The position numbers were made by a program, and so were the translations under genes. From a bacterium (lineage in GTDB: Bacteria > Patescibacteriota > Saccharimonadia > Saccharimonadales > AWTP1-31): a DNA stretch of 64,000 nt. Below the pieces are notes generated by a model, which was not told the DNA's origin, did no database searches, and worked only from the letters and a program-made list of their open reading frames with translations. Positions 2,671 through 60,623 of the stretch are shown here, piece after piece (position 1 is the first letter of the stretch; every line of letters starts with the position of its first letter). The stretch covers positions 67,633 to 131,632 of the forward strand of contig JAUHZB010000002.1 in the NCBI GenBank assembly GCA_030426125.1, read 5' to 3'.

Positions 2671-4194
2671 TTACAAGAATAATTCTATACTCTCTGAATC
2701 GACTTTGTGGTACTCATAATTAGTAGCTTTTAAAGATTCTTTTAATTCTGACCAGTCATTTCCCCTAAAGCCAATTAGTACCCGGCCTTTATCGGCACCT
2801 AGTCCGCGGTAATGGAACAAGCTGATGCTCCATTTCTGACTAATGGTGTCTAGGAACTTTAGCAACGCCCCTGGTTTCTCTGGAAAATTGACTTCCAGTA
2901 TCATCTCTTGATTTTTATCTTTACTTGGGCCACCAACCATATGTCTGATATGCTCTTTGGCAATTTCATCCAGGGTTAGATCATAGTAATTGTATCGATG
3001 CTTTGTTAGGTTAGCGATTAATTGGTTCTTGTCTTCTGCTTGATTTAAGTTAATCCCGATTAGTATAACTGCTTTGTCCTTGGTTGACTGGCTGGCTTTA
3101 TAGCGGTAGCTAAATTCACTAATTGAAAAACCATTAATTACGTCAAGACAAAGTTTTCTCAGGCTCCCGGCTTTTTCTGGTAGCTCAATAGCAAACAAAG
3201 CTTCTTTGCCGCTACCTATAAGTGTTCGCTCGGCTATGAACTGGAGCCTTTCAAAAGTCATGTTGGCTCCAGATAAAATACAGGCCACTTGCTTATTCTT
3301 CTCGGATTTAAGTTCAGAAAAGTATTTTGTGGCCCCAGCTACTGACAGAGCTCCAGCCGGCTCCACAATTGCTCGACTGTCTTCAAAGATTGCTTTAATG
3401 GCGGCACAGACTTGATCTACACTGACCGTGATTATTTCATCTACATATTGTTTGGCTAGTTGGTAAGTTAAGTCCCCAACTTGCTTAACTGCTACACCGT
3501 CAGCAAAAATACCGACATGGTCTAGCTGTAGTCTTTTATTTGTCGCAAGTGACTGTTGCATGGCATTACTGTCAGCCGGCTCAACGCCTATTACTTTTAT
3601 ATCTGGTCTCTTCTTTTTAACGTATTCTGCGACTCCAGCGATTAGTCCTCCGCCACCAACGGGGACGAAAATATAGTCAAGATCTGGGTGTTGCTCTAAG
3701 AGTTCTTTGGCTACCGTGGCTTGTCCATCAATAACCATACGGTCATCAAAGGGATGAATAAAAGTCATAGGACTGGCTTTCATTAGTTCTTGGCATTTTG
3801 CGTAGGCCTCGGAATAGTTATCGCCACTTAAGACTACTTTAGCCCCGTAGCTTTTTACAGCTTCAACTTTAATACTCGGCGTTGTTTCAGGCATCACTAT
3901 TACTGCTGGAATATCTAATTCCTTGGCACTTAAGGCCACGCCCTGAGCATGGTTGCCAGCACTGGCTGCAATTACTCCGGCCTTTTTCTGCTGATCACCC
4001 AGCGAAGCTATTTTGTTGTAGGCTCCTCTAATCTTGAAAGAGTGTATAGGCTGTAAGTCTTCACGCTTGAAATTTATTGATTGGCCAAGCTGCAAGCTTA
4101 GTTTGTTGACTTTTTGTAAGGGTGTTCTACTAACTAAATCATAAAAGCTCGGGTGAACTTTTAGAGCCGATTGTTGGGTCGATTGTTTTTTCAT
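2671..4194 (-). CDS. ilvA: threonine ammonia-lyase (threonine dehydratase), biosynthetic type with two C-terminal regulatory repeats
   Basis: 507 aa. PLP-lysine motif SFKIRGAYN, glycine loop VPVGGGGLIAG, and a long C-terminal region of two ACT-like repeats as in biosynthetic IlvA. Confidence 0.9.
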   Translation of the reverse strand: MKKQSTQQSALKVHPSFYDLVSRTPLQKVNKLSLQLGQSINFKREDLQPIHSFKIRGAYNKIASLGDQQKKAGVIAASAGNHAQGVALSAKELDIPAVIVMPETTPSIKVEAVKSYGAKVVLSGDNYSEAYAKCQELMKASPMTFIHPFDDRMVIDGQATVAKELLEQHPDLDYIFVPVGGGGLIAGVAEYVKKKRPDIKVIGVEPADSNAMQQSLATNKRLQLDHVGIFADGVAVKQVGDLTYQLAKQYVDEIITVSVDQVCAAIKAIFEDSRAIVEPAGALSVAGATKYFSELKSEKNKQVACILSGANMTFERLQFIAERTLIGSGKEALFAIELPEKAGSLRKLCLDVINGFSISEFSYRYKASQSTKDKAVILIGINLNQAEDKNQLIANLTKHRYNYYDLTLDEIAKEHIRHMVGGPSKDKNQEMILEVNFPEKPGALLKFLDTISQKWSISLFHYRGLGADKGRVLIGFRGNDWSELKESLKATNYEYHKVDSESIELFL

Positions 4195-4553
4195 AGTTTC
4201 TCAGCCACTGCCTCAATTTCCACCAATAGTTTATTATCTGCAACTCTAGGAAGTTCCTTAACACCAACGGTACTACGAGCTGGTCTACTTCCACTAGCCT
4301 CAAAAACTTCGGCGTAGACTTTATTCATAGCTTCAAAATCTTCAATATTGACTAAATAGACGGTTACTTTAATTACCTTAGATAAATCTGAGCCAGCTTG
4401 TTTAAGAACATCAGTTAGGTTTTGCAGGGCAAGTGTTGTTTGCTCGGTTATATTTTCTGGTGCTTTGCCTTCCTTAGCTCCAACTTGGCCAGCACTAAAT
4501 ACTAGATTTTTGCTATCTTGGTAACTTGCGTATGGTCCGTAAGTTTTTGGCAT
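4191..4553 (-). CDS. ridA: RidA/YjgF-family reactive enamine/imine deaminase
   Basis: ORF track gives 4191..4646. Start moved to ATG 4551-4553 (MPKTYGPY...) because GAAAGGAG lies 4 nt upstream and the longer version runs through a terminator hairpin. YjgF-family C-terminus (RPARSTVGV..LP...VEIEAVA). Its TGA stop overlaps the ilvA ATG (ATGA). Confidence 0.85.
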   Translation of the reverse strand: MPKTYGPYASYQDSKNLVFSAGQVGAKEGKAPENITEQTTLALQNLTDVLKQAGSDLSKVIKVTVYLVNIEDFEAMNKVYAEVFEASGSRPARSTVGVKELPRVADNKLLVEIEAVAEKL

Positions 4554-4603
4554 AGTTCTCCTTTCAATATTTGGTTTATTCTTGCTAGCTAAACTAGCTA
4601 AAC

Positions 4604-4632
4604 AAAAAAGACCTCTGCTTGGTAGAGAGGTC
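4604..4632 (-). terminator. attenuator terminator in the ridA-ilvA leader
   Basis: Minus strand GACCTCT-ctaccaagc-AGAGGTC followed by TTTTTT, about 50 nt upstream of the ridA Shine-Dalgarno site. Confidence 0.7.
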
Positions 4633-4656
4633 GTTTTATAAGACAATTAGCGACAT

Positions 4657-4707
4657 CTACCGCGTAAGCGGGTCAATAATGTCAATAATTGCTACTATTT
4701 TGTTCAT
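4657..4707 (-). CDS. putative attenuator leader peptide, Ile-rich (16 aa, MNKIVAIIDIIDPLTR)
   Basis: ATG 4705-4707 to TAG 4657-4659. 5 Ile and 1 Val in 16 codons (ATT ATT GAC ATT ATT GAC). No Shine-Dalgarno site; the ATG is 8 nt after a -10 box. The stop codon lies inside the antiterminator segment. Confidence 0.6.
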   Translation of the reverse strand: MNKIVAIIDIIDPLTR

Positions 4708-4715
4708 ACCTTAAG

Positions 4716-4743
4716 ATATTACTCTTTGTTCTGGCTCTGTCAA
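4716..4743 (-). promoter_or_regulatory. promoter driving the Ile leader peptide and ridA-ilvA
   Basis: Minus strand TTGACA (4738-4743), 16 nt, TAATAT (4716-4721), then 8 nt to the leader ATG. Confidence 0.6.
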
Positions 4744-5012
4744 GACAGTCGCCGTTGCTCAATGGTAAGTGGCTGAATATCTTGGTTGTAGTCGTCAGTT
4801 TTAAAAGGATGACCATCACGCCCACTGGCTAGGTGTTCACCAATTATTCTTAGTTCTGGTATTGTGCTGGCCAGATAATTTGAAATTTCCGGACAAACTA
4901 TTCGACCTGGATTAGATTCAGTTTGTATTGGTCTTTCCGGTACTTCGTCTAATCCAAAAGGATCGACTTCGCTAGTTCTCCAACCTAACCAACCATCAGG
5001 ATTTGCTTTCAT
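4740..5012 (-). CDS. hypothetical small protein (90 aa)
   Basis: ORF track gives 4740..5039. ATG 5010-5012 (MKANPDGWLGW...) is preferred because AAGGAG lies 9 nt upstream. No family recognised. TGA stop. Confidence 0.5.
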   Translation of the reverse strand: MKANPDGWLGWRTSEVDPFGLDEVPERPIQTESNPGRIVCPEISNYLASTIPELRIIGEHLASGRDGHPFKTDDYNQDIQPLTIEQRRLS

Positions 5013-5061
5013 CTTTCTTTGCTCCTTTATTCTTATCAATTATTATCTTATCTGAATTATT

Positions 5062-5355
5062 CTAGATGCCTTGGCTTAATGGATCTATAGTTCTAGTACT
5101 TTGGATATCACTACTCTGTGTTTGCTGTAATGCTTCATCGATTGGCGTAGCAGTCATTGAGTAGCCAACTTCACTATCATGAATTAACTCTAATACAACA
5201 GTTGGTCCAACAATTATCCCTTTATTAGCTAATGTTTGATATACCTCAGTAATAACCTCACCGCTATAATCTTGTCCATTAAAATAGACATCTTCAGCTA
5301 TCTCTTCGAAGATTATTGGGTATTTTCGTTCTAATTGTTCAATGTCTTGGCTCAT
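5062..5355 (-). CDS. hypothetical small acidic protein (97 aa)
   Basis: ORF track ORF. AAAGGAA Shine-Dalgarno site about 7 nt upstream of the ATG. First gene after the Leu/Ile/Val attenuator. No family recognised. Confidence 0.55.
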   Translation of the reverse strand: MSQDIEQLERKYPIIFEEIAEDVYFNGQDYSGEVITEVYQTLANKGIIVGPTVVLELIHDSEVGYSMTATPIDEALQQTQSSDIQSTRTIDPLSQGI

Positions 5356-5373
5356 TAAATATTCCTTTAAGTT

Positions 5374-5398
5374 AAAATTCAGGCTATTGAAGCCTGAA
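5374..5398 (-). terminator. attenuator terminator upstream of the 97-aa gene
   Basis: Minus strand TTCAGGCT-tcaat-AGCCTGAA followed by TTTT. Its left arm plus loop (TCAGGCTTCAAT) is perfectly complementary to 5429-5440. Confidence 0.65.
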
Positions 5399-5428
5399 CT
5401 ATGTGGGCTGTGTTGGCGTTAGTAACGC

Positions 5429-5542
5429 TCAGGCTTCAATATATTTTGGACACAGCCCTTTAAGATTAAGAATATCTAAAACCAGCAGCAGATTATTGCT
5501 TCCGTACGCGACGATCCGATTAGCTGTTGCTGTGTTATGCAT
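5429..5542 (-). CDS. putative attenuator leader peptide, Leu/Ile/Val-rich (37 aa)
   Basis: ATG 5540-5542 to TGA 5429-5431: MHNTATANRIVAYGSNNLLLVLDILNLKGLCPKYIEA. 7 Leu, 3 Ile, 2 Val. No Shine-Dalgarno site; the ATG is 7 nt after an extended -10. The last four codons (ATT GAA GCC TGA) form the antiterminator segment. Confidence 0.55.
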   Translation of the reverse strand: MHNTATANRIVAYGSNNLLLVLDILNLKGLCPKYIEA

Positions 5543-5549
5543 CAGTACT

Positions 5550-5578
5550 GTTATAGCACGACGTTTAATCGACCGCAA
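5550..5578 (-). promoter_or_regulatory. promoter of the Leu/Ile/Val leader transcription unit
   Basis: Minus strand TTGCGG (5573-5578), 17 nt, TGcTATAAC (5550-5558), then 7 nt to the leader ATG. Confidence 0.55.
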
Positions 5579-5601
5579 TAGCTAATAGAAAGCCTACTTC
5601 G

Positions 5602-7929
5602 CTAATTTATTTGCTGAAGTTTGAACTGGGTATATTTTTCAGCTGCAAGTCTGGTTAGTTCGGCGTCTTCGGAGGTGTTAACAAAACGCATCGCTTCAGC
5701 CAGCATTGGGTGTTGCTCGGCCAGCTTTTGATGCATCTGCATTACGAGTTTACGGTATCCGGGGTGGCCTTGAGGGCTAGTTCTTAGTTCATGCAGATGG
5801 AATGCTTCACGGGCATTGTAGGTTATCTTCCAGCGCATTTTATGCCCAAGTAAAGTAGCGTACTGTGCTTCGATCTCGTATCCAGCACTTATTAACTGGC
5901 TATGCAGGTTGAGGCTTAGGTCGAAGCAATCTTGGAATAGTTCTTCTAGTCCAGCTTCCTCTACTAGTTCTGGAACTTCATAACCATAGCGAGGGGTCAA
6001 TGCTTGCCACTCTAGATCATCAACCATTCTGTGTCGTTGTAGGTCTCTAAATATTCCGTAGTCGCACATTAGATCCCAGCTATAGTGAGCTTTTTCTAAA
6101 GCTCGACCCGGTTTGTGACGACGATTTAATCTTTCACCCATGTATTTATTAAATACTTCAGTTTTTTGCTTATAGCTCCATTTACTTACTTCCTGCTCTA
6201 TTTCAGCTAATGAAAGATGGCTGTGTTCATAGAGCATGTCCGGTAGTAGGTCTAGCTCGTTCTTTGGCCAGCAATCACTTAAGACCACTGCTTCATCCTG
6301 TTGACCATAATTTGGAGGTAGGTATTTATCGGCAACCTCTTGCATAGCCGAGTGGGTGTTGGCTCGGTAAGCAATTATGGCTCCGCCACGATCTGGTCGG
6401 TCGGCTCGCTCTAGGAAGGTTGGAATAATCTTCCGGGCTTCTTGCAGTAGTCGGTCTCCAGTCTGGACTGCTTCTGGTAGCTTATCGCTTTGCAGGTGCA
6501 TAATTAAACTTTCTAGAGCTTGACCTGAGGCGTAGATACCAACTGTAGCTTTAGTGGCTACCGGCAACACTGGCCTGATAGCATCACAGGCTTGGGCTCT
6601 AGTGGCACCTTTCCAAGCGATATCTTGCTCTTCTTTTGGGGTGCTAGAGTTACTTCGTACATAGTCGGTTAATTTTCTAACCATTTCAGAGTATTTGTCG
6701 AAAATGGTGTCCATTGTTTTAACGTAGCTTTGCTTAATGTCTTCGCTGAAGTGATCCGGCACTAGGTATTTATATTTGCCATCTTTATCTTTCTGATCAA
6801 AGTAGATATAGCGAGTCGATTGTTCTAGGTAAGCTGCTAATCTTCCCCACTCTAGTTTCTTGGTTAGTAGGTTAGATGCATTTTCAACTACCAGGTGGAT
6901 ACCAACTAATTGTTGAACGGAATCATCGCCGTAAGCAGTAATTACTCTTTGCAGTAGCTTTTCATCCTTAGAGGTTTTTCCGGCGAATTCATCAAGCAGG
7001 GTTATACGCATATCGTCACCACGACGACTTAGTCTAGCCATGGCGGCGGCTATCATGGTGGTGCTTAGATTGTCAGTGAAAGCATAGACATTGTCTTGAT
7101 TATTGGTCACAGATTTGTTTAAGAATTGCTCACCGGCAGTGGTAATAGTGTATTCACCAGTGCTGGCTTTTAGTAGTAACGGTCCTTGGTTATCTTCTGC
7201 TATTTTCGACTTTTCTTTAGTTGGTAGTATTGGCAAAACAGTCTCCCATAGTAAGTTATTAATTGTTTCAATATCTAATAATTCTCCGCCTCGTACGCAA
7301 TCGATTTGCTGGAAGTCTTCGGGGAACATGCTACATAGATCATCATATACCTGTACAGACTTAGTTAGGTGGTTAAGATCAGCTTCGTGGATGTCACGTT
7401 TTTTATCGGTGTAATCACGTTTTTCTTTTTGATCAACCAGCTTTTGGGCTGTTTCAGCCGGTACTCGAAGCACAATATTGCGATCTGGCCTAGGGATCTT
7501 TAGCATTTCAAACTCAAGGTTATCTAGCCAAATAAAGTAGCCTTTTCTTTCCTGCTGGTTATTGAACTTAGTTCCTTGATGAGCCATGTTACTGCCAGTA
7601 AAGCGATTGGCCAAAACAATATGGCCTTTATCCAGTGCGGCTCGTATTTCGGGCGCTGCTTGGTAGCGATCTAAGGCATAGAACAAAGAGCCGGTGTAGG
7701 GTCCGACCTCTTCAGCGGTGCCGTATTTAGCATTTAAATACTCCCGGACAAAGAAACTAGATTCGTTTTGGTACTGTGGGAAGTCAAAAACAGACACTGG
7801 AAAGCCATTATCCTCCAAGCGTTTTTTTAGCAGTTTAAACTGAGTGCCCTTTCCGGAACCATCAGTTCCTTCAATAACTATGAACACTCCGTTGTCTTTG
7901 TTGTCGTTGGTTTGACTATTTTGCTTCAT
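5602..7929 (-). CDS. fusion protein: dTMP kinase (N-terminal) + tandem-repeat flavin-dependent thymidylate synthase ThyX-like (C-terminal)
   Basis: 775 aa. Residues about 1-230 look like thymidylate kinase (P-loop FIVIEGTDGSGKGTQ). The rest holds two ThyX-like halves (..ARLSRRG...EQSTRY.. and ..FRDLQRHRMV...LTPRYGY..), matching ThyX RHR and S-x-RY type motifs. Confidence 0.75.
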   Translation of the reverse strand: MKQNSQTNDNKDNGVFIVIEGTDGSGKGTQFKLLKKRLEDNGFPVSVFDFPQYQNESSFFVREYLNAKYGTAEEVGPYTGSLFYALDRYQAAPEIRAALDKGHIVLANRFTGSNMAHQGTKFNNQQERKGYFIWLDNLEFEMLKIPRPDRNIVLRVPAETAQKLVDQKEKRDYTDKKRDIHEADLNHLTKSVQVYDDLCSMFPEDFQQIDCVRGGELLDIETINNLLWETVLPILPTKEKSKIAEDNQGPLLLKASTGEYTITTAGEQFLNKSVTNNQDNVYAFTDNLSTTMIAAAMARLSRRGDDMRITLLDEFAGKTSKDEKLLQRVITAYGDDSVQQLVGIHLVVENASNLLTKKLEWGRLAAYLEQSTRYIYFDQKDKDGKYKYLVPDHFSEDIKQSYVKTMDTIFDKYSEMVRKLTDYVRSNSSTPKEEQDIAWKGATRAQACDAIRPVLPVATKATVGIYASGQALESLIMHLQSDKLPEAVQTGDRLLQEARKIIPTFLERADRPDRGGAIIAYRANTHSAMQEVADKYLPPNYGQQDEAVVLSDCWPKNELDLLPDMLYEHSHLSLAEIEQEVSKWSYKQKTEVFNKYMGERLNRRHKPGRALEKAHYSWDLMCDYGIFRDLQRHRMVDDLEWQALTPRYGYEVPELVEEAGLEELFQDCFDLSLNLHSQLISAGYEIEAQYATLLGHKMRWKITYNAREAFHLHELRTSPQGHPGYRKLVMQMHQKLAEQHPMLAEAMRFVNTSEDAELTRLAAEKYTQFKLQQIN

Positions 7930-13165: not shown

Positions 13166-13828
13166 TTAGCGCAGACCTAGCATGCTAGAACAGGCTGGCC
13201 ATTGTCCCCAGCCACTTCGGGCCTGAAGAATTTGAGCTCGTTTTATTTGTTCAGCTTTACTGTGTTGGTGCGGTAAACCAGTTCCACCAACTGCACGCCA
13301 GGTTGCGGCACTAAACTGCACACCACCGTAGTAACCATTGCCAGTATTTATTGACCAGTTTCCACCTGATTCACAACTAGCTAGTCGATCCCATACACTA
13401 CCACTAACCGCGTTACTACTAACAGCTGGCGCTGGGGTTGGCGTAGTTGCTGGAGCTTGATAGCTTTGCTGACTGCTACTTGAAGTCGATTGAACTCTTG
13501 TCTGTGGCTTTGGCGCTTGGTTGCTTGGAATAGCTCGTTTCTTTAGCTTTTCGGATTTGCTAGGAATCCGTAATTTATCTCCTGGGTGAATAATGTCAGG
13601 ATCAGCGATTGATTTGTTAGCGTAGAAAATTCGCTGGTAAGTTGTTTTTTTCTTGTTAGCAATTTTAGATAAGCTATCGCCTGGTTGCACTTCAACCACT
13701 ACTTTAGCTGGTTTTTTATTAGTTTTGGTTTGCTCAGCAGCTTCTACTGCTTTGGTGCTTGGTCCACCGAAAAATAGGCCGACAGCCAGAGCAAAGCTCG
13801 CTAAAAAAGCGATTTTTTTGATTGACAT
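13166..13828 (-). CDS. secreted LysM-domain protein with C-terminal Rpf-type (resuscitation-promoting-factor-like) transglycosylase domain
   Basis: 220 aa. Signal peptide MSIKKIAFLASFALAVGLFF. LysM (VQPGDSLSKIA...IHPGDKLRIP). Rpf signature WDRLASCESGGNWSINTGNGYYGGVQFSAATW. Strong Shine-Dalgarno site GGAGGAG. Confidence 0.8.
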   Translation of the reverse strand: MSIKKIAFLASFALAVGLFFGGPSTKAVEAAEQTKTNKKPAKVVVEVQPGDSLSKIANKKKTTYQRIFYANKSIADPDIIHPGDKLRIPSKSEKLKKRAIPSNQAPKPQTRVQSTSSSSQQSYQAPATTPTPAPAVSSNAVSGSVWDRLASCESGGNWSINTGNGYYGGVQFSAATWRAVGGTGLPHQHSKAEQIKRAQILQARSGWGQWPACSSMLGLR

Positions 13829-19659: not shown

Positions 19660-20685
19660 TTACTGTCTGAGCCCTACGGCTTTTTGGGCTTTGGCTAGTG
19701 TTTGGTTAGCTAACTGATTCACCTCTTTTTCAGATTGGCTAATTTTATCCAGGCATAGTTGGTCGTCAACAGCTTGAAGCTTATTGTTAAAATCTTTTAG
19801 GAAGTTCACTACAGCGTCGGCAACATCCTTTTTGAATTCGCCGTATTGGCTTAAGCCTTGGTATTTTTGCTGGACGTCGGCAAGTGGTGTTCCGCTCAGT
19901 GCTGACAATATATCCATTAAGTTACTAATACCAGGGCGAGTTTCATGATCATAGGCTATTTCACCGAAGCTATCGGTAGTAGCGGATAGTATCTTTTTGC
20001 GGGCCACTTCTGGATCATCACCGAGGAAAATTATGCCTTTGTCACTACCTGCTGATTTACTCATCTTTTTACTGGGATCTTGTAAATCCTTGATGCGTAA
20101 ACGGTTGGTAGAGTGAGCGAACTCAATCTGCTGTTTTTCAGCCTCCGGTAATACAAATATGTCACCAAATTTGTTATTGAAGCGAATAGCTATGTCCCTA
20201 GCTAGCTCAACGTGCTGAGTCTGATCGGCTCCGACCGGCACATATTTGGCACCGTACAGTAGAATGTCAGCAGCCATTAGTACTGGATAGTCGAATAGCC
20301 CGACAGAAACGCTCGATTGTCCACTGCCCTTTTCCTTGAATTGGGTCATTCTACTAAGTTCCCCCATGTAGGTGAAGCTGTTTAATATGACCGTTAGTTC
20401 ACTATGTGCCGGAACAAAACTTTGACGATAGATATAGGTATCCTGATCCTTAATGTCTAGCCCTGCTGCTATAAACAGCCTAATATTGTTTAAAGACTGT
20501 TCATAGAGCTTACTGTGGTCAATAGGTGTGGTGAAACTATGTAGATCAGGTACAAACAGGTTAATCTGATACTGACCAGCGTATTGCTTCTGTAATTTAA
20601 CAATAGGGAGCAAGGCACCTAGGTAATTACCAAGGTGGAGTTGGTTATTGGCCCGTAGACCGGTTAATATTACTGGTTTACTCAT
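19660..20685 (-). CDS. trpS: tryptophan--tRNA ligase
   Basis: 341 aa. Class I motifs LHLGNYLG (HIGH variant) and KMSKS. TrpRS-length single domain. Confidence 0.9.
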   Translation of the reverse strand: MSKPVILTGLRANNQLHLGNYLGALLPIVKLQKQYAGQYQINLFVPDLHSFTTPIDHSKLYEQSLNNIRLFIAAGLDIKDQDTYIYRQSFVPAHSELTVILNSFTYMGELSRMTQFKEKGSGQSSVSVGLFDYPVLMAADILLYGAKYVPVGADQTQHVELARDIAIRFNNKFGDIFVLPEAEKQQIEFAHSTNRLRIKDLQDPSKKMSKSAGSDKGIIFLGDDPEVARKKILSATTDSFGEIAYDHETRPGISNLMDILSALSGTPLADVQQKYQGLSQYGEFKKDVADAVVNFLKDFNNKLQAVDDQLCLDKISQSEKEVNQLANQTLAKAQKAVGLRQ

Positions 20686-20770
20686 AGTTCTCTCTCTATC
20701 TATTAGTTACTGAGCTATCCTGCATTACGTTATCTATTATACATAGACAACTTCTCTATTAATATGTTGT

Positions 20771-21955: not shown

Positions 21956-21994
21956 ATCTTTTCCTGTTATTGTCTCTTCTTATTCTTTTACATT

Positions 21995-22023
21995 AAAAAA
22001 CCGCCCCTTTTTTTTGGACGGTT
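21995..22023 (-). terminator. attenuator terminator in the DAHP-synthase leader
   Basis: Minus strand AACCGTCC-aaaaaaaag-GGGCGGTT followed by TTTT. One stem position is a G-U pair that exists only in the minus-strand RNA. Confidence 0.65.
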
Positions 22024-22045
22024 ACGTTTTCTGAGCAAAAATTAA

Positions 22046-22114
22046 CTATGCTGAATAAACCGTCCAAGATTGTCCGGTAAACCAATAAGCCTTATTAATT
22101 CGTTTTCTCAACAT
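22046..22114 (-). CDS. putative attenuator leader peptide with Tyr-Trp-Phe triplet (22 aa, MLRKRINKAYWFTGQSWTVYSA)
   Basis: ATG 22112-22114 to TAG 22046-22048. 5 of 22 codons are aromatic; codons 10-12 are TAT TGG TTT. No Shine-Dalgarno site. Codons 17-19 form the antiterminator arm. Confidence 0.65.
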   Translation of the reverse strand: MLRKRINKAYWFTGQSWTVYSA

Positions 22115-22124
22115 AACGTTATAG

Positions 22125-22153
22125 ATAATACATTATGTTGCCAAGTATTGCAA
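22125..22153 (-). promoter_or_regulatory. promoter of the aromatic leader peptide and DAHP synthase
   Basis: Minus strand TTGCAA (22148-22153), 17 nt, TATTAT (22125-22130), then 10 nt to the leader ATG. Confidence 0.6.
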
Positions 22154-22172: not shown

Positions 22173-22201
22173 TTGGCCTGTGTGTTAGCTCAAGGTATAC
22201 T
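22173..22201 (+). promoter_or_regulatory. promoter of the 107-aa plus-strand gene (leaderless candidate)
   Basis: TTGGCC (22173-22178), 17 nt, TATACT (22196-22201), then 7 nt to ATG 22209. No Shine-Dalgarno site. Divergent from the DAHP-synthase promoter. Confidence 0.5.
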
Positions 22202-22208
22202 TATATAG

Positions 22209-22532
22209 ATGAAACAGACTGTAGCTTTGGAAATACTATCACCTCAGCAGCTTATTCATGATTTGCCGGGCGGTATTCGTTCTGACCAGCAAATTCAGCA
22301 AATTGATGTCTGTGGAGCCAATTGTCCAGATAGACAGCCAGTCGTAAATGACTTATTAAGGTTATCTCAGGAGCTTGGCTTTGAAGTTCGAATCATATCT
22401 AGTGGTTGTCACGGAGCGATCGGCGGATGTGCAGTAAACGGGGCGCTGGAATGCGGTGCTTATGTGACCATACCAGTTTCGTCAGCAACTGGCGTAGTAG
22501 ATTCTGAAGTAATTGTTCGCTCTCGGTCTTAG
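22209..22532 (+). CDS. hypothetical Cys/Gly-rich small protein (107 aa)
   Basis: Only plus-strand gene within a roughly 38-kb minus-strand run (tRNA-Trp at 13.0 kb to clpP at 51.5 kb). It has its own promoter and a terminator hairpin. 5 Cys (CGANC, GCHGAIGGC, EC). No family recognised. Confidence 0.5.
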   Translation: MKQTVALEILSPQQLIHDLPGGIRSDQQIQQIDVCGANCPDRQPVVNDLLRLSQELGFEVRIISSGCHGAIGGCAVNGALECGAYVTIPVSSATGVVDSEVIVRSRS

Positions 22533-22542
22533 CTTTAGTAAG

Positions 22543-22570
22543 AAAAAACACCGGCTGTGGACCGGTGTTT
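22543..22570. terminator. bidirectional terminator between the 107-aa gene (+) and rpsI (-)
   Basis: ACACCGG-ctgtgga-CCGGTGT. The A6 run upstream gives a U6 tail on the minus strand; the plus-strand tail is TTTAT. Confidence 0.75.
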
Positions 22571-22595: not shown

Positions 22596-23006
22596 TTAAC
22601 GCTTTGTAAACTGACGTTGTTTACGAGCTCCCTTAAGACCGTATTTCTTACGTTCTTTTTCTCTTGGGTCACGTCCAAGTAGATCGGCTCTTCGAAGAGT
22701 TTGCTTATAATCTTCATTTACAAGAACAAGGGCTTTAGCAATAGCAAGACGTATAGCAATCGCTTGACCACTCATTCCGCCACCAGATACTACAACGCTA
22801 ACGTCGAACTTGTTGTTTTGTTCAAGCACGTTAAAAGGTTTTGTTAGTTCGTATAGAAGAGGTTTGCTGTTAGCAAAGTATTCTTCTGCCGGCTTAGAAT
22901 TAACAGTTATGTTTCCTTTACCAGTCATAAGTCTGGCTCGAGCAGTTACGCTTTTACGTCGACCTAGTGCATAGAAGTAGTTTTTTGGTTTTGCAGTAGT
23001 TGCCAT
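22596..23006 (-). CDS. rpsI: 30S ribosomal protein S9
   Basis: 136 aa. YFYALGRRKSVTARARL and C-terminal GLKGARKQRQFTKR. UAAUG-coupled to rplM. Confidence 0.95.
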   Translation of the reverse strand: MATTAKPKNYFYALGRRKSVTARARLMTGKGNITVNSKPAEEYFANSKPLLYELTKPFNVLEQNNKFDVSVVVSGGGMSGQAIAIRLAIAKALVLVNEDYKQTLRRADLLGRDPREKERKKYGLKGARKQRQFTKR

Positions 23007-26920: not shown

Positions 26921-28441
26921 TTACTTTTTTGACTTGGTACTGTCTTTTGGTGGTTTTTTGAGGCGATTAGGTATGAATCTTAATCGTCTCGCGCCAGTGG
27001 CGGCTTGGGCCGGTTCACTGGAATCATAGAAAAAATCTTCTTCGGTATACTGATCGTAGGTCGCCATTAGGGCCCGTGACTCTATTTGACGTAGTGTCTC
27101 CAGAGCAACAGATACTAAGATCAGGATACTGGTTCCACCAAGTGAAATATTGGTGGTTAAGAACTTTTGACCAAGTATCGGCATTAGGGCTAAGAGACCC
27201 AATGCGAGAGCCCCAAATAATGTTAGACGGTTAACTACCTTGCTTAGATACTTTTCGGTTTGTTTACCAACCCGGACGCCTTCAATGAAGCCACCTTGCT
27301 TTTGGAGGTTTTCAGCGATATCTTTGGAGTTAAATGCAATCGATGTATAGAAGAAAGTAAAGGCAAAGACTAGTAGAAAGTATACTGCTGGATAAACATA
27401 TGGCTCCCAGCCTGGTTGTTGGAAGGTCTCAGCTGTTGGGTTCTGGAAAAGTTGAACTAAGTTCTGCCCAATCTCTTGGACTCTAGGGTTGCTTGAGGCG
27501 GTCATAAGCTGTCCAGCAAAGCTAGGAACGCTTAAGAAAGCTACCGCGAAGATGATCGGGATTACACCAGCGGTAATCAGCTTAACGGGCAGTTTGGTAG
27601 TAACACCTCCATAGCTACGATTTCCTTGAACGCGCTTAGCATAGTTTACTGTTAAGTTACGTGAAGCTTCATTCAGCTTCACAACCAACACTGTAACCAG
27701 GGTTACTACGGCCACTATAATCGAGGTATATATTAGACCTTGAGTATCAATCGGTAGTTGTCTGCCGAGGACGTTTATCTTCTCATTATCGTTAATTATG
27801 CTACTAAGCAGGCTTCCAATGGTCCCAGGTAAACTACTTACAATTCCAACGGTAATGATTAAAGAGATACCGTTTCCAACGTTACGCTCTGTAATTAATT
27901 CACCAAGCCACATTAGAATCATCGAGCCGCCAGTTAGGGCGCAGATCATTAGTACCCATTGCATCAATGAAGTATTGGCGGTAATGTCACCAAGACCACC
28001 GATGCTAGAAGCTGACTGCCTTACCAGGTAGATAGCACCGATTGACTGCATGATGGCTAACGGTAGTGTTAAGAGCCTGGTGTACTGATTGATCTTCTTC
28101 CGACCGAACTCACCTTCTTTGTTTAGGGCTTCTAGTTTTGGAATAGCCTTGGTTAGAAGTTGCATTATGATCGAAGCATTAATGTAGGGGCCCAGTCCAA
28201 CTAGCATAATTGAGAAGTTAGCAAGTGCACCACCAGATAAAACATTAATAAAACTAAATAGTTCTGGGGTTTCACTGGAGGCGAAAACGTTATCTAGGAT
28301 TTGTTTTAGGGTAGCAGGATCAGCTAGAGGTACTGGAATGTGGGCAAAAATACGGAATACAAACAACATGCCTAGCACCGCTAACAAGCGATTGCGCATG
28401 TCTGAACTTTTCAGTGATGACCAAATTACTTTCCAACTCAT
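26921..28441 (-). CDS. secY: preprotein translocase subunit SecY with basic C-terminal tail
   Basis: 506 aa multi-pass membrane protein. [15 protein letters not shown]. Follows rplO. infA follows directly, with no adk or map. Confidence 0.93.
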
Positions 28442-51514: not shown

Positions 51515-52126
51515 ATGAATAAACCAACCAATGCAACTTTAGTACCAACAGTTATTGAAAGTGATGGCCGTGTCGAACGAGCCTACGATATATATAGTCG
51601 TCTATTAAAAGATCGAATCATCTTTTTAGGTGATGCTGTAAATGAGCACACCGCTAACTTAGTCGTCGCTCAGCTATTATTCCTTCATGCTGAGGACCCC
51701 AAGAAAGACATTAATTTCTATATCAATAGTCCAGGAGGGGTTGTTTACGACGCTCTAGCTATCTATGACACTATGCAATATATATCTAACGACATTCAAA
51801 CCGTCGGTATCGGTGTACAAGCCTCGGCCGCCGCTTTTCTACTAAGTTCTGGCACCAAGGGCAAGCGTGTCGCGTTGCCAAATGCAACTATCATGGTTCA
51901 CCAACCAAGTAGCGGTACTAGAGGTAAGGTTACCGATATGGAGATTGACCTAAAAGAATCACTCAGGATTAAGCAAAGACTTAATGAAATAATGGCCAAG
52001 AATACTGGTCAAACCGTTAAGAAAATCCAAGCCGATATGGAGCGTGACTATTGGATGAATGCTGAAGAATCTGTAAAATACGGTATTGTTGACAAGATTG
52101 TTAAAAGCTTGAAAGAAGTTAAATAA
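51515..52126 (+). CDS. clpP: ATP-dependent Clp protease proteolytic subunit
   Basis: 203 aa. [19 protein letters not shown], catalytic Ser region [16 protein letters not shown]. Confidence 0.96.
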
Positions 52127-59360: not shown

Positions 59361-60623
59361 CTATTTGCTAACAAGCAGTAATTTATTCTTACCACGCTTA
59401 ACGATAAGATGGTTATTTATGAAGCTGAACTCGTTATTTTCAATGTCCTCGGAGGATATTTTCTGTCCATTAATCTGGATAGCACCTTCGCTAACAAAGC
59501 GGCGGGCTTCAGTCTTACTGCTAGCCAACTGGCCTTCTATTAAAACATCTAAGAAGTTTTTATCACCTAGACTAAGGTGCGGAATTTCGCGGGCTAGTAG
59601 TGCAAAGTCATCTTGGCTTAACTCTTGGTAGTTTTCGCTAAATAGTAGGTCAGTGATCTTGATTATTTGTTCAGTAATCTGCTGGCCATGAACCAGGGTA
59701 GTTACTTCGCTGGCCAATGTTTTTTGTGCTACTCTGGTGGCTTTGTTGGAGTTAAATTCTTCCATGATCTGATCAATTTCGTTTTTATCCAGTTCGGTGT
59801 AGGTTTTCAAGTAGCCTTCAACTCCTTGGTCATCGACATTTAACCAGAACTGGTAAAACTGGAATGGGGAGGTTAGCTCGGCATCTAGCCACACCGCTCC
59901 GTCTTCAGACTTACCGAATTTCTTTCCAGTTTGAGAATTAATAATTAGCGGAATAGTTAGGGCGTGTACTTCTTTGGAGCGAGTCCTTCGAATTAGATCG
60001 ACCCCAGATAAACAGTTACCCCACTGGTCGGAGCCCCCGATTTGTAGTTGGCAGTTGTATTTATCGAACAGGTGTAAGTAGTCCATCCCTTGTAATAAGG
60101 TGTAGCTGAACTCAGCGTAAGTGATTCCACTGCCTCCTTGGTTCATTCGTTTGGCAATGAAATCTCGCTGGACTAGCGGTGTCATACTGTAGTGTTTACC
60201 AATGTCTCTTAAAAAGTCGATAACCTTTAAGTCTTTGGTCCAGTCCAGGTTGTTTACTAGTTGGAATTGATGACCACGGTAAATATTATTAAACTGTTTT
60301 TCGGCTTGCTTAATATTGTTAGCTATTGTTTCTAGAGACTGTAGTTCACGCTCACTGTCCTTGCCTCCTGGATCGCCGATCAGACTGGTTGCTCCCCCAG
60401 CTAGAATAATGGCTTTGTGGCCATGACGTAGGAATACTTTATCGATCATCATGGCTGCTAGATTACCGATGGTTTGTGATGGTGCGCTAGCGTCAAAACC
60501 GTGGTAGAAAGTCCATTGCTGTTTGTCTAATTGGCCAATATCTTTAAAGGTGCTTTGGTTAATAAAACCACGCCACTGTAGCTCTTCTGAAAGGGTCATC
60601 TGCTGTTTATTACTTTTGCTCAT
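59361..60623 (-). CDS. tyrS: tyrosine--tRNA ligase
   Basis: 420 aa. GFDASAPSQTIGNL (degenerate HIGH), KFGKS (KMSKS variant), C-terminal S4-like domain. Confidence 0.92.
   Translation of the reverse strand: MSKSNKQQMTLSEELQWRGFINQSTFKDIGQLDKQQWTFYHGFDASAPSQTIGNLAAMMIDKVFLRHGHKAIILAGGATSLIGDPGGKDSERELQSLETIANNIKQAEKQFNNIYRGHQFQLVNNLDWTKDLKVIDFLRDIGKHYSMTPLVQRDFIAKRMNQGGSGITYAEFSYTLLQGMDYLHLFDKYNCQLQIGGSDQWGNCLSGVDLIRRTRSKEVHALTIPLIINSQTGKKFGKSEDGAVWLDAELTSPFQFYQFWLNVDDQGVEGYLKTYTELDKNEIDQIMEEFNSNKATRVAQKTLASEVTTLVHGQQITEQIIKITDLLFSENYQELSQDDFALLAREIPHLSLGDKNFLDVLIEGQLASSKTEARRFVSEGAIQINGQKISSEDIENNEFSFINNHLIVKRGKNKLLLVSK

Follow-up and report, generated by a model that had tools for sequence, protein, structure and literature searches.

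The closest described counterpart of the element analysed here, a putative attenuator in front of a class II 3-deoxy-D-arabinoheptulosonate 7-phosphate (DAHP) synthase gene in a 64-kb stretch of bacterial DNA (contig JAUHZB010000002.1; the window, in what follows, is this whole stretch), is the aroR leader of Corynebacterium glutamicum, a Phe-Tyr-Phe leader that attenuates the DAHP synthase gene aroF (Neshat et al. 2014; PMC4046766, PMC11802643). As described there, aroR-aroF shares with our locus a short mixed-aromatic leader peptide upstream of a DAHP synthase gene, an increase in transcription when a ribosome stalls there (in our case a predicted one), and the same logic applied to the first committed step in a pathway that leads to three end products. 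Unlike aroR, which belongs to the Actinomycetota and carries no Trp codon, the leaders reported below come from Saccharibacteria, members of the Candidate Phyla Radiation (CPR), and 20 of 22 contain Trp; their operon often carries the tryptophan-tRNA ligase gene trpS, and copies of their RNA scaffold with Trp-only codons stand before other operons. Our analysis favours a model in which the window carries a leader-peptide (ribosome-mediated) transcription attenuator that senses charged aromatic tRNAs, a reading that we hold with high confidence on the strength of comparative sequence evidence. The attenuator would most likely raise the entry enzyme of the aromatic pathway together with Trp-tRNA ligase when aromatic amino acids are scarce.

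Three further groups of leaders are relevant for comparison. The enterobacterial trpL and pheL leaders (RF00513 and RF01859) likewise have a leader open reading frame (ORF) containing regulatory codons. Their antiterminator and terminator hairpins exclude each other, the position of the stop codon is such that a ribosome terminating there obstructs the antiterminator, and the first structural gene is immediately preceded by an intrinsic terminator. There is no homology to them in sequence or structure, and in contrast to their single repeated amino acid the sensor codons of the Saccharibacteria leaders are mixed Tyr, Trp and Phe, the ORF lacks a Shine-Dalgarno (SD) site and is apparently leaderless, and the hairpin between segments 1 and 2 is weak or absent in most members. 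Leader-peptide attenuators are also described for leuS and, as a prediction, for trpS of Streptomyces and for gamma-proteobacterial pheST (PMC1262725), where, as probably here, a tRNA ligase gene is placed under a leader with cognate codons rather than under a T-box; unlike in those systems, trpS in the window would share its mixed aromatic leader with a biosynthetic gene, and only in relatives (locus L001) does a Trp-Tyr leader head a separate trpS operon. Finally, leaderless polycysteine short ORFs of mycobacteria attenuate expression of the downstream operon (bioRxiv 10.1101/834739) and resemble our leaders as cis sensors that lie at or next to the transcription start site and are enriched in codons for the downstream product. 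Such cys leader peptides have been described without obvious terminators (Seliverstov et al., PMC1262725), whereas the Saccharibacteria leaders keep a clear pair of intrinsic terminator and antiterminator. The mechanism is thus a textbook one with a direct precedent in aroR-aroF, and the present case extends its known range while leaving the concepts unchanged. The sequence-only reading of this DNA from which our analysis started knew of no such leader in CPR-like genomes, and a literature search returned no relevant report of attenuators or leader peptides in Saccharibacteria or CPR, although its coverage was incomplete and the result is absence of evidence only.

Architecture and conservation of the leader

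The sequence-only reading had placed a promoter, a leader ORF with Tyr-Trp-Phe codons and three segments, A, B and C, on the minus strand, and every one of these elements was recovered there (Table 1; all leader elements are read on the minus strand, in coordinates of the whole 64-kb stretch). The A:B pairing, which had been given as 8 bp extendable to 10, indeed comprises 10 bp (UUGGACGGUU:AACCGUCCAA; -17.7 kcal/mol), and the alternative B:C pairing includes, as had been pointed out, one U.G pair that is possible only in minus-strand RNA. The B:C hairpin (-10.6 kcal/mol by RNAfold) is predicted to function as an intrinsic terminator; its position before the SD site of the DAHP synthase gene was correctly proposed, but the U tract lies about 30 nt from the AGGA, not about 40. 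A terminator scan did not return this hairpin because its loop measures 9 nt and the scan permits loops of 3-8 nt. The UAG stop codon starts 9 nt past the end of A, the terminator stem lies 43 nt from the ATG of the DAHP synthase gene, and the leader of about 120 nt belongs to a promoter-to-terminator unit of about 125 nt. Five of the 22 residues of the leader peptide are aromatic, and the identical leader sequence is found in two other independent assemblies.

Orthologous upstream regions were taken from genome and metagenome contigs (L-numbers label loci), giving a family set of 22 Saccharibacteria-clade loci, the window included, each with at least 145 nt of upstream sequence and with enzymes that are 34-57% identical. 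The same layout, running from promoter through leader ORF, aromatic run, A and stop codon to the B:C terminator and an SD-led gene, is present in 22/22 loci, and the hairpin of the orthologues, too, runs into a U-rich tail. The leader ORFs are 22-30 codons long and all of them contain a run of 3-6 aromatic codons, most commonly with YWF at its core; within the run Phe predominates, usually accompanied by a single Trp and a single Tyr, and Phe occurs in every leader. Aromatic residues make up 129 of the 531 leader residues (24%) as opposed to 6.7% in the long proteins of the window. Examples from relatives, each ending at a stop codon, are ...KMYWFTDTTRTVYSA (from the 57% identical relative), MTRHMNKAYWFTDTFRGGLFRVFE, MNRPVFFFYWFTNPQLAVCSVRLQS and MSYQQHTFWFYFFTRGGVSFDS. 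An alignment of orthologues had been named as a check on the sequence-only reading, and small ORF, aromatic codons and A/B/C complementarity all proved conserved. Its emphasis on one codon for each end product did not hold up: what is conserved is the aromatic run, and two leaders lack Trp.

The spacing of these elements is also constrained. A begins 10-14 nt past the aromatic run in 18/22 leaders, and in 18/22 the A core lies 14-17 nt past the last aromatic codon, whatever the reading frame. Across the 22 leaders the stop codon falls 0-17 nt beyond the predicted A:B duplex and the terminator stem 17-30 nt beyond the stop, and the structural gene starts 16-56 nt after the terminator stem, leaving no room for a separate DAHP synthase promoter. 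This spacing bears on the idea that the unit is an independent small gene, encoding a small hydrophobic peptide or a small RNA with its own terminator, and that DAHP synthase is expressed separately. The unit is certainly self-contained from promoter to terminator, and attenuator-derived RNAs and leader peptides can act in trans in other bacteria (PMC6614838, PMC7298713). Even so, the interval of 16-56 nt, which has to hold the U tract and the SD site, is too short for a promoter, the unit always lies directly upstream of its presumed target gene on the same strand, the peptide is not conserved as a protein, and a conserved, covarying A:B alternative has no role in a simple terminator. We therefore regard a separate transcription unit as very improbable; a trans role may exist in addition to cis attenuation.

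In the proposed attenuator, the lack of an SD site can be explained by the position of the promoter. The -10 box ends 6-12 nt upstream of the leader start codon in nearly all members, making the ORF leaderless or nearly so, and we infer that it is probably translated from such an RNA. Beyond the leader, -10-like hexamers 6-8 nt before the start, with no SD site, were observed for the ORF at 22209 (22173-22211, plus strand), secY (26921-28441, minus strand), clpP (51515-52126, plus strand) and tyrS (59361-60623, minus strand), and leaderless mRNAs seem, as judged from these motifs, to be common in the source genome alongside SD-led genes.

Alternative pairing of segments A, B and C

Both of the mutually exclusive helices are preserved across the family. 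In a plain MAFFT alignment, with sliding of the partner as the control, 78.8% of A:B cells are paired versus 37-56% after sliding, and for B:C the corresponding values are 91.4% and 25-57%. The A:B duplexes range from -13 to -26 kcal/mol and reach p<=0.05 against codon-shuffled leaders in 19/22 cases (median p=0.008). The consensus structure from RNAalifold contains the B:C terminator only, with compensatory changes in 4 of its 6 pairs. Because the core is mostly conserved in sequence, a test specific to A:B was made on the flanking bases 5' of the A core and 3' of the B core, where the bases on the B side lie mostly in the terminator loop. Here 56 of 66 cells are paired as compared with 41.1+/-2.6 after permutation, a value reached in 0 of 5000 permutations, and one flanking position shows UA in 12 leaders, AU in 4, GC in 2, CG in 1 and UG in 1. 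In one column all three segments covary: the window, L081 and L094 have A in segment A, U in B and G or A in C, and the rest have G, C and G. The covariation of A:B and of B:C thus adds to the 22/22 layout and to an independent model match (below) in support of classical attenuation as the sequence-only reading had conceived it.

The region around A is conserved, judging from the alignment, as RNA and not as peptide. Twelve leaders read the conserved stretch GGCGGUUUGUUCYGUGYGUUUG in codon phase 1, eight in phase 0 and two in phase 2, so that the peptide it encodes is RGGLFRVFA, AVCSVRLQ or WRFVPCV depending on the frame. Reading A in three frames at a fixed distance from the aromatic codons disfavours an arrest peptide or a functional small protein, and the constancy of the distance from run to A across frames is what a ribosome footprint acting as a ruler over an RNA switch predicts. 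Critical in TnaC, the type case of a nascent arrest peptide, is a Trp followed by Phe. A sensor of this type, in which the peptide would sense a free aromatic amino acid within the ribosome, stall it and alter downstream termination, could account for the recurrence of a W-F motif followed by Thr, found as xYWFT or FWFT in most leaders. The remainder of the peptide, beyond the aromatic run and this Thr, is nevertheless not conserved, with differing N-termini and a C-terminal half that runs in three frames over conserved RNA; the two leaders without Trp and the related copies with WW, WY or scattered W do not fit such a peptide either, and an RNA role can account for the conserved ACC behind the run, which in some members belongs to the segment that pairs with A. 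Moreover, in TnaC the stall occurs at the stop codon and the effect runs via Rho; a ribosome halted at that position here would mask A and so favour termination. We consider an arrest peptide highly unlikely.

Folding of the leaders in the presence of a ribosome is largely consistent with the codon-sensing attenuator. Masking the footprint at the stop codon gives the terminator in 21/22 leaders. If the ribosome is instead placed on the final aromatic codon, before C has been transcribed, A:B pairing results in 20/22. In 19/22 leaders the antiterminator has the lower free energy (medians -20.4 versus -12.1 kcal/mol for the terminator), the window among them with the energies given above; there, adding C still leaves the antiterminator as the minimum-energy structure for the RNA that lies downstream of the stalled ribosome. 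We propose that transcription would begin a few bases before the leader ATG and that the leaderless 22-codon ORF would be translated right behind RNA polymerase. A shortage of Tyr-, Trp- or Phe-tRNA would make the ribosome stall at codons 10-12 (UAU-UGG-UUU) with its front edge just before A, so that A could pair with B as B emerges (at least 10 bp); with B held by A, no terminator with C would form, and polymerase would read into DAHP synthase and probably trpS. When aromatic tRNAs are plentiful, the ribosome would run to the UAG and cover A, and the B:C hairpin with its U tract would stop transcription about 40 nt before the gene.

Several observations weigh against this reading. A:B is weak in L001, L092 and L165 (p=0.07-0.20), and since sequence conservation prevails in the core helices and the leaders are relatives of one another, combined p-values overstate independence. 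In the full-length equilibrium fold with the ribosome on the last aromatic codon, the terminator is kept in 17/22 leaders including the window, where the masked full-length fold that keeps the terminator reaches -18.9 versus -17.7 kcal/mol by letting the 5' end of the mRNA pair around the ribosome. The masked folds put forward as a check in the sequence-only reading thus come out divided, in that the relative energies and the nascent fold behave as expected and the full-length masked equilibrium does not; since only nascent RNA without C flips in most members, the switch would depend on the order of co-transcriptional folding. Without translation, the predicted fold is the antiterminator in 8/22 leaders and the terminator in 14/22. 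A hairpin between segments 1 and 2 (segment 2 being A), which in the classical model gives termination of an untranslated leader, is not supported as a family feature, as it is weak or absent in most members (family median p=0.30); in the window itself the segment 1:A duplex reaches -8.8 kcal/mol (shuffle p=0.024) and is seen in the free-RNA fold. The transcription start site is placed by a promoter that scores 9/12 matches in a promoter scan. Classical leaders carry 2-7 tandem regulatory codons, and with one codon for each of three aromatics the leader in the window may have low sensitivity. In C. glutamicum, Tyr availability reportedly has no effect on aroR.

Related copies and exchange of the sensor codons

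A covariance model built from 16 leaders, with the window and its nearest relative left out, finds as its top match in the window the leader itself (21992-22093, minus strand; 39.5 bits, E=6e-7). The second match (13717-13821, plus strand; 19.3 bits, E=0.015) lies antisense in the signal-peptide coding region of an Rpf/LysM gene and was dismissed as chance. No match was obtained in 35 non-CPR class II DAHP synthase loci totalling 219 kb (Pseudomonas, Actinomycetes, Caulobacteraceae); a small-ORF scan of non-CPR class II loci also gave none, a result of little weight, as the number of loci covered was not recorded. These data bear on whether a short ORF, promoter-like hexamers and a hairpin have merely coincided in an AT-rich intergenic region. 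Promoter- and terminator-like motifs are not enriched over shuffles in the surrounding 10 kb and the z-score of the leader fold is only -2.1, as coincidence would allow; against it stand the match of a model that had left the window out, the layout common to 22/22 loci and the covariation, by which chance is effectively refuted.

The same model found extra copies within the collected Saccharibacteria loci (Table 1), so that the RNA family comprises at least 26 instances and is absent from Rfam 15. The extra copies bear Trp-only or Trp-Tyr sensor codons and lie upstream of other operons, of which the one in L001 ends with trpS. The first genes behind the Trp-type leaders have no match in Pfam, NCBIfam or the PDB and no similarity to one another. 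Because a single RNA scaffold bears different sensor codons before different operons, sensing based on codons is strongly supported.

This exchange of codons also speaks to a switch that would work without translation, in which A, B and C are set by a ligand, by uncharged tRNA as in a T-box or by a protein as with TRAP, the ORF being incidental. The nucleotide-level conservation of the A/B/C scaffold and its reuse before several operons are what such a switch would show, and in Firmicutes T-boxes typically control the genes of aminoacyl-tRNA synthetases (PMC1262725). Rfam, however, gave nothing at gathering score either in the window or in 18 orthologous loci. In particular, no T-box was matched in the window at gathering score or at E<=10, nor in the 18 orthologous loci at gathering score; Trp_leader (RF00513) had no match in the window at E<=10, and Phe_leader (RF01859) reached 17.2 bits there against a gathering score of 55 (E=2.3), covering essentially only the terminator. 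The leader of about 120 nt contains no further conserved structured domain upstream of A, in agreement with the terminator-only consensus from RNAalifold. Furthermore, 22/22 leaders retain the ORF with a start codon 6-12 nt past the -10 box, an aromatic run and a constant spacing between this run and A; an incidental ORF would not be expected to persist in this way. The sensor codons, moreover, vary with the regulated operon. A translation-independent switch therefore seems quite improbable.

Taking the codon-sensing attenuator as the basis, it is tempting to speculate that Saccharibacteria possess a modular family of leaderless attenuator cassettes, in which one RNA switch has been re-targeted by swapping the sensor codons about 15 nt upstream. 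This wider proposal is tentative, and we think it somewhat less likely to be right than wrong. The switch (GGCGGUUUGUUC... / ...GAAGAAACCGCC / GGCGGUUUUUU) would carry mixed Phe/Tyr/Trp codons where it serves the short, probably feedback-insensitive DAHP synthase, and Trp-only codons would serve trpS and genes of unknown function. If true, the cassettes would represent a major amino-acid-sensing regulatory system of reduced epibionts, direct evidence that these organisms rely on tight coupling of transcription and translation, and a handle for giving Trp-related roles to uncharacterised genes.

Table 1 Positions of the leader elements, the genes behind them and the extra copies found by the covariance model
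Feature	Position	Strand	Remarks
-35-like hexamer TTGCAA	22148-22153	-	From sequence and promoter scan; TTGACA/TTGCAA-like hexamers at the same relative position in orthologues
-10-like hexamer TATTAT	22125-22130	-	17-nt spacer; 10 nt upstream of leader ATG
Leader ORF MLRKRINKAYWFTGQSWTVYSA, 22 codons and TAG	22046-22114	-	ATG 22114-22112, TAG 22048-22046; without SD site
Sensor codons TAT-TGG-TTT (Tyr-Trp-Phe), codons 10-12	22079-22087	-	Proposed ribosome stalling site
Possible segment 1, UACCGGACAA	22070-22079	-	Right after the aromatic codons (ACCG...); can pair with segment A in untranslated RNA
Segment A core, GGACGGUU	22058-22065	-	From sequence
Segment A, 10 nt, UUGGACGGUU	22058-22067	-	Classical segment 2; 5' half of antiterminator, within leader ORF codons 16-19
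Segment B core, AACCGUCC	22016-22023	-	From sequence
Segment B, 10 nt, AACCGUCCAA	22014-22023	-	Segment 3; partner either A (antiterminator) or C (terminator)
Segment C, GGGCGGUU	21999-22006	-	Segment 4; 3' arm of terminator hairpin
U tract	21995-21998	-	Completes intrinsic terminator; six U in total including two in the stem
SD site AGGA of DAHP synthase gene	21962-21965	-	6 nt upstream of its ATG
Gene 1, short-form class II DAHP synthase-like enzyme, 394 aa	20771-21955	-	Pfam PF01474 (DAHP_synth_2)
Gene 2, tryptophan-tRNA ligase trpS	19660-20685	-	TIGR00233, 301.9 bits, over cut-off
Extra copy in L001	4229-4354		Leader ...IANWYTDTSRGGLFRVFA... (NWYT); heads unknown 301-aa gene, Asp/Glu racemase, trpS
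Extra copy in L002	6910-7015		Leader ...NNQAWWTGTS...
Extra copy in L090	2210-2284		Leader ...SWRWRICIWQ...
Extra copy in L091	2126-2214		Leader ...KSWYIDTLWR, then stop codon

Genes behind the leader and their surroundings

The gene behind the leader is, by sequence comparison, a divergent short-form member of the class II DAHP synthase family, whose activity is predicted. It matches PF01474 with 219 bits (E=1.1e-64), above the cut-off of 27 bits, and scores 188 bits against the equivalog model TIGR01358, far under the cut-off of 614.7. Its best match in the PDB, 6bmc_A, is the short type IIB enzyme PaeDAH7PS PA1901 and aligns as one stretch. In an alignment of 75 sequences of the clade, C84, K127-P128-R129, K246, R277, H307, E349 and D374 are invariant and S130 is present in at least 90% of sequences; by analogy with the Mycobacterium tuberculosis enzyme, we take these residues to be the probable metal ligands (Cys, His, Glu, Asp) and ligands of phosphoenolpyruvate. 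The short type II form suggests that control at the transcript level may replace feedback inhibition and offers a plausible reason for placing control there.

Downstream, trpS lies directly behind the DAHP synthase gene and the 85-nt spacer between them (20686-20770) contains no hairpin with a U tract, so that the attenuator probably controls both genes together. The same adjacency is found in L081, L163, L164 and L005. A TATAAT at 20736-20741 (minus strand), 50 nt upstream of the trpS ATG and with a poor -35, was also observed in this spacer; speculatively, it may act as a weak internal promoter that provides a basal level of trpS independent of the attenuator. The genes after trpS encode a pseudouridine synthase and then holB. 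No attenuator was found upstream of tyrS in the window.

The label CPR-like given to this DNA by the sequence-only reading was apt, as the nearest homologues of the enzyme and the contigs that share the gene order rpoA-rplQ-rplM-rpsI / DAHP synthase-trpS-rluD-holB are metagenome-assembled genomes of Saccharibacteria/Saccharimonadales. The closest non-CPR homologues of the enzyme in a genome scan include Actinomycetes (Nocardiopsis, Streptomyces, Nesterenkonia), and cultivated Saccharibacteria usually have Actinomycetes as their hosts (PMC10633639). The common description of CPR/Patescibacteria is one of minimal biosynthesis and little known regulation. A conserved attenuator would mean that at least some Saccharibacteria regulate the entry enzyme of the aromatic pathway and trpS according to tRNA charging, and the mechanism would imply ribosomes that closely trail RNA polymerase on leaderless messages. 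The Trp-only copies, for their part, mark the unknown genes behind them as candidates for Trp-related functions.

In two relatives (L162, 2501-6146; L002, 2971-6852) the leader-controlled DAHP synthase gene was observed to be followed by genes for prephenate dehydrogenase, an ACT-domain-containing chorismate mutase-prephenate dehydratase and an aminotransferase of class IV. By its predicted gene content this set is an operon for the Phe/Tyr branch, in a phylum usually described as lacking amino-acid biosynthesis.

Upstream of the leader, the neighbour is a divergent plus-strand ORF of 107 aa (22209-22532) without a match in Pfam or NCBIfam. Since this ORF is divergent, the 253-nt spacer is a divergent promoter region and not the end of another gene; the promoters of the leader and of the ORF stand back to back inside a stretch of about 50 nt. 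Between the ORF and rpsI (22596-23006, minus strand) lies a perfect 10-bp GC-rich hairpin (22546-22570) with U tracts on both strands, which looks like a bidirectional terminator serving the two convergent genes. In the intergenic gap at 4647-5601, ORFs of 97-99 aa were considered and set aside as unrelated to the attenuator. The flanking region at 2671-4646 (minus strand) contains a further module of amino-acid metabolism, in which a RidA (L-PSP) gene overlaps a biosynthetic-type threonine dehydratase with C-terminal regulatory domains. At 13166-13828 (minus strand) the window encodes a secreted LysM and Rpf-type transglycosylase-like protein, with the resuscitation-promoting-factor fold typical of Actinomycetes, and at 5602-7929 (minus strand) a 775-aa fusion of an N-terminal thymidylate kinase with ThyX-type thymidylate synthase domains.

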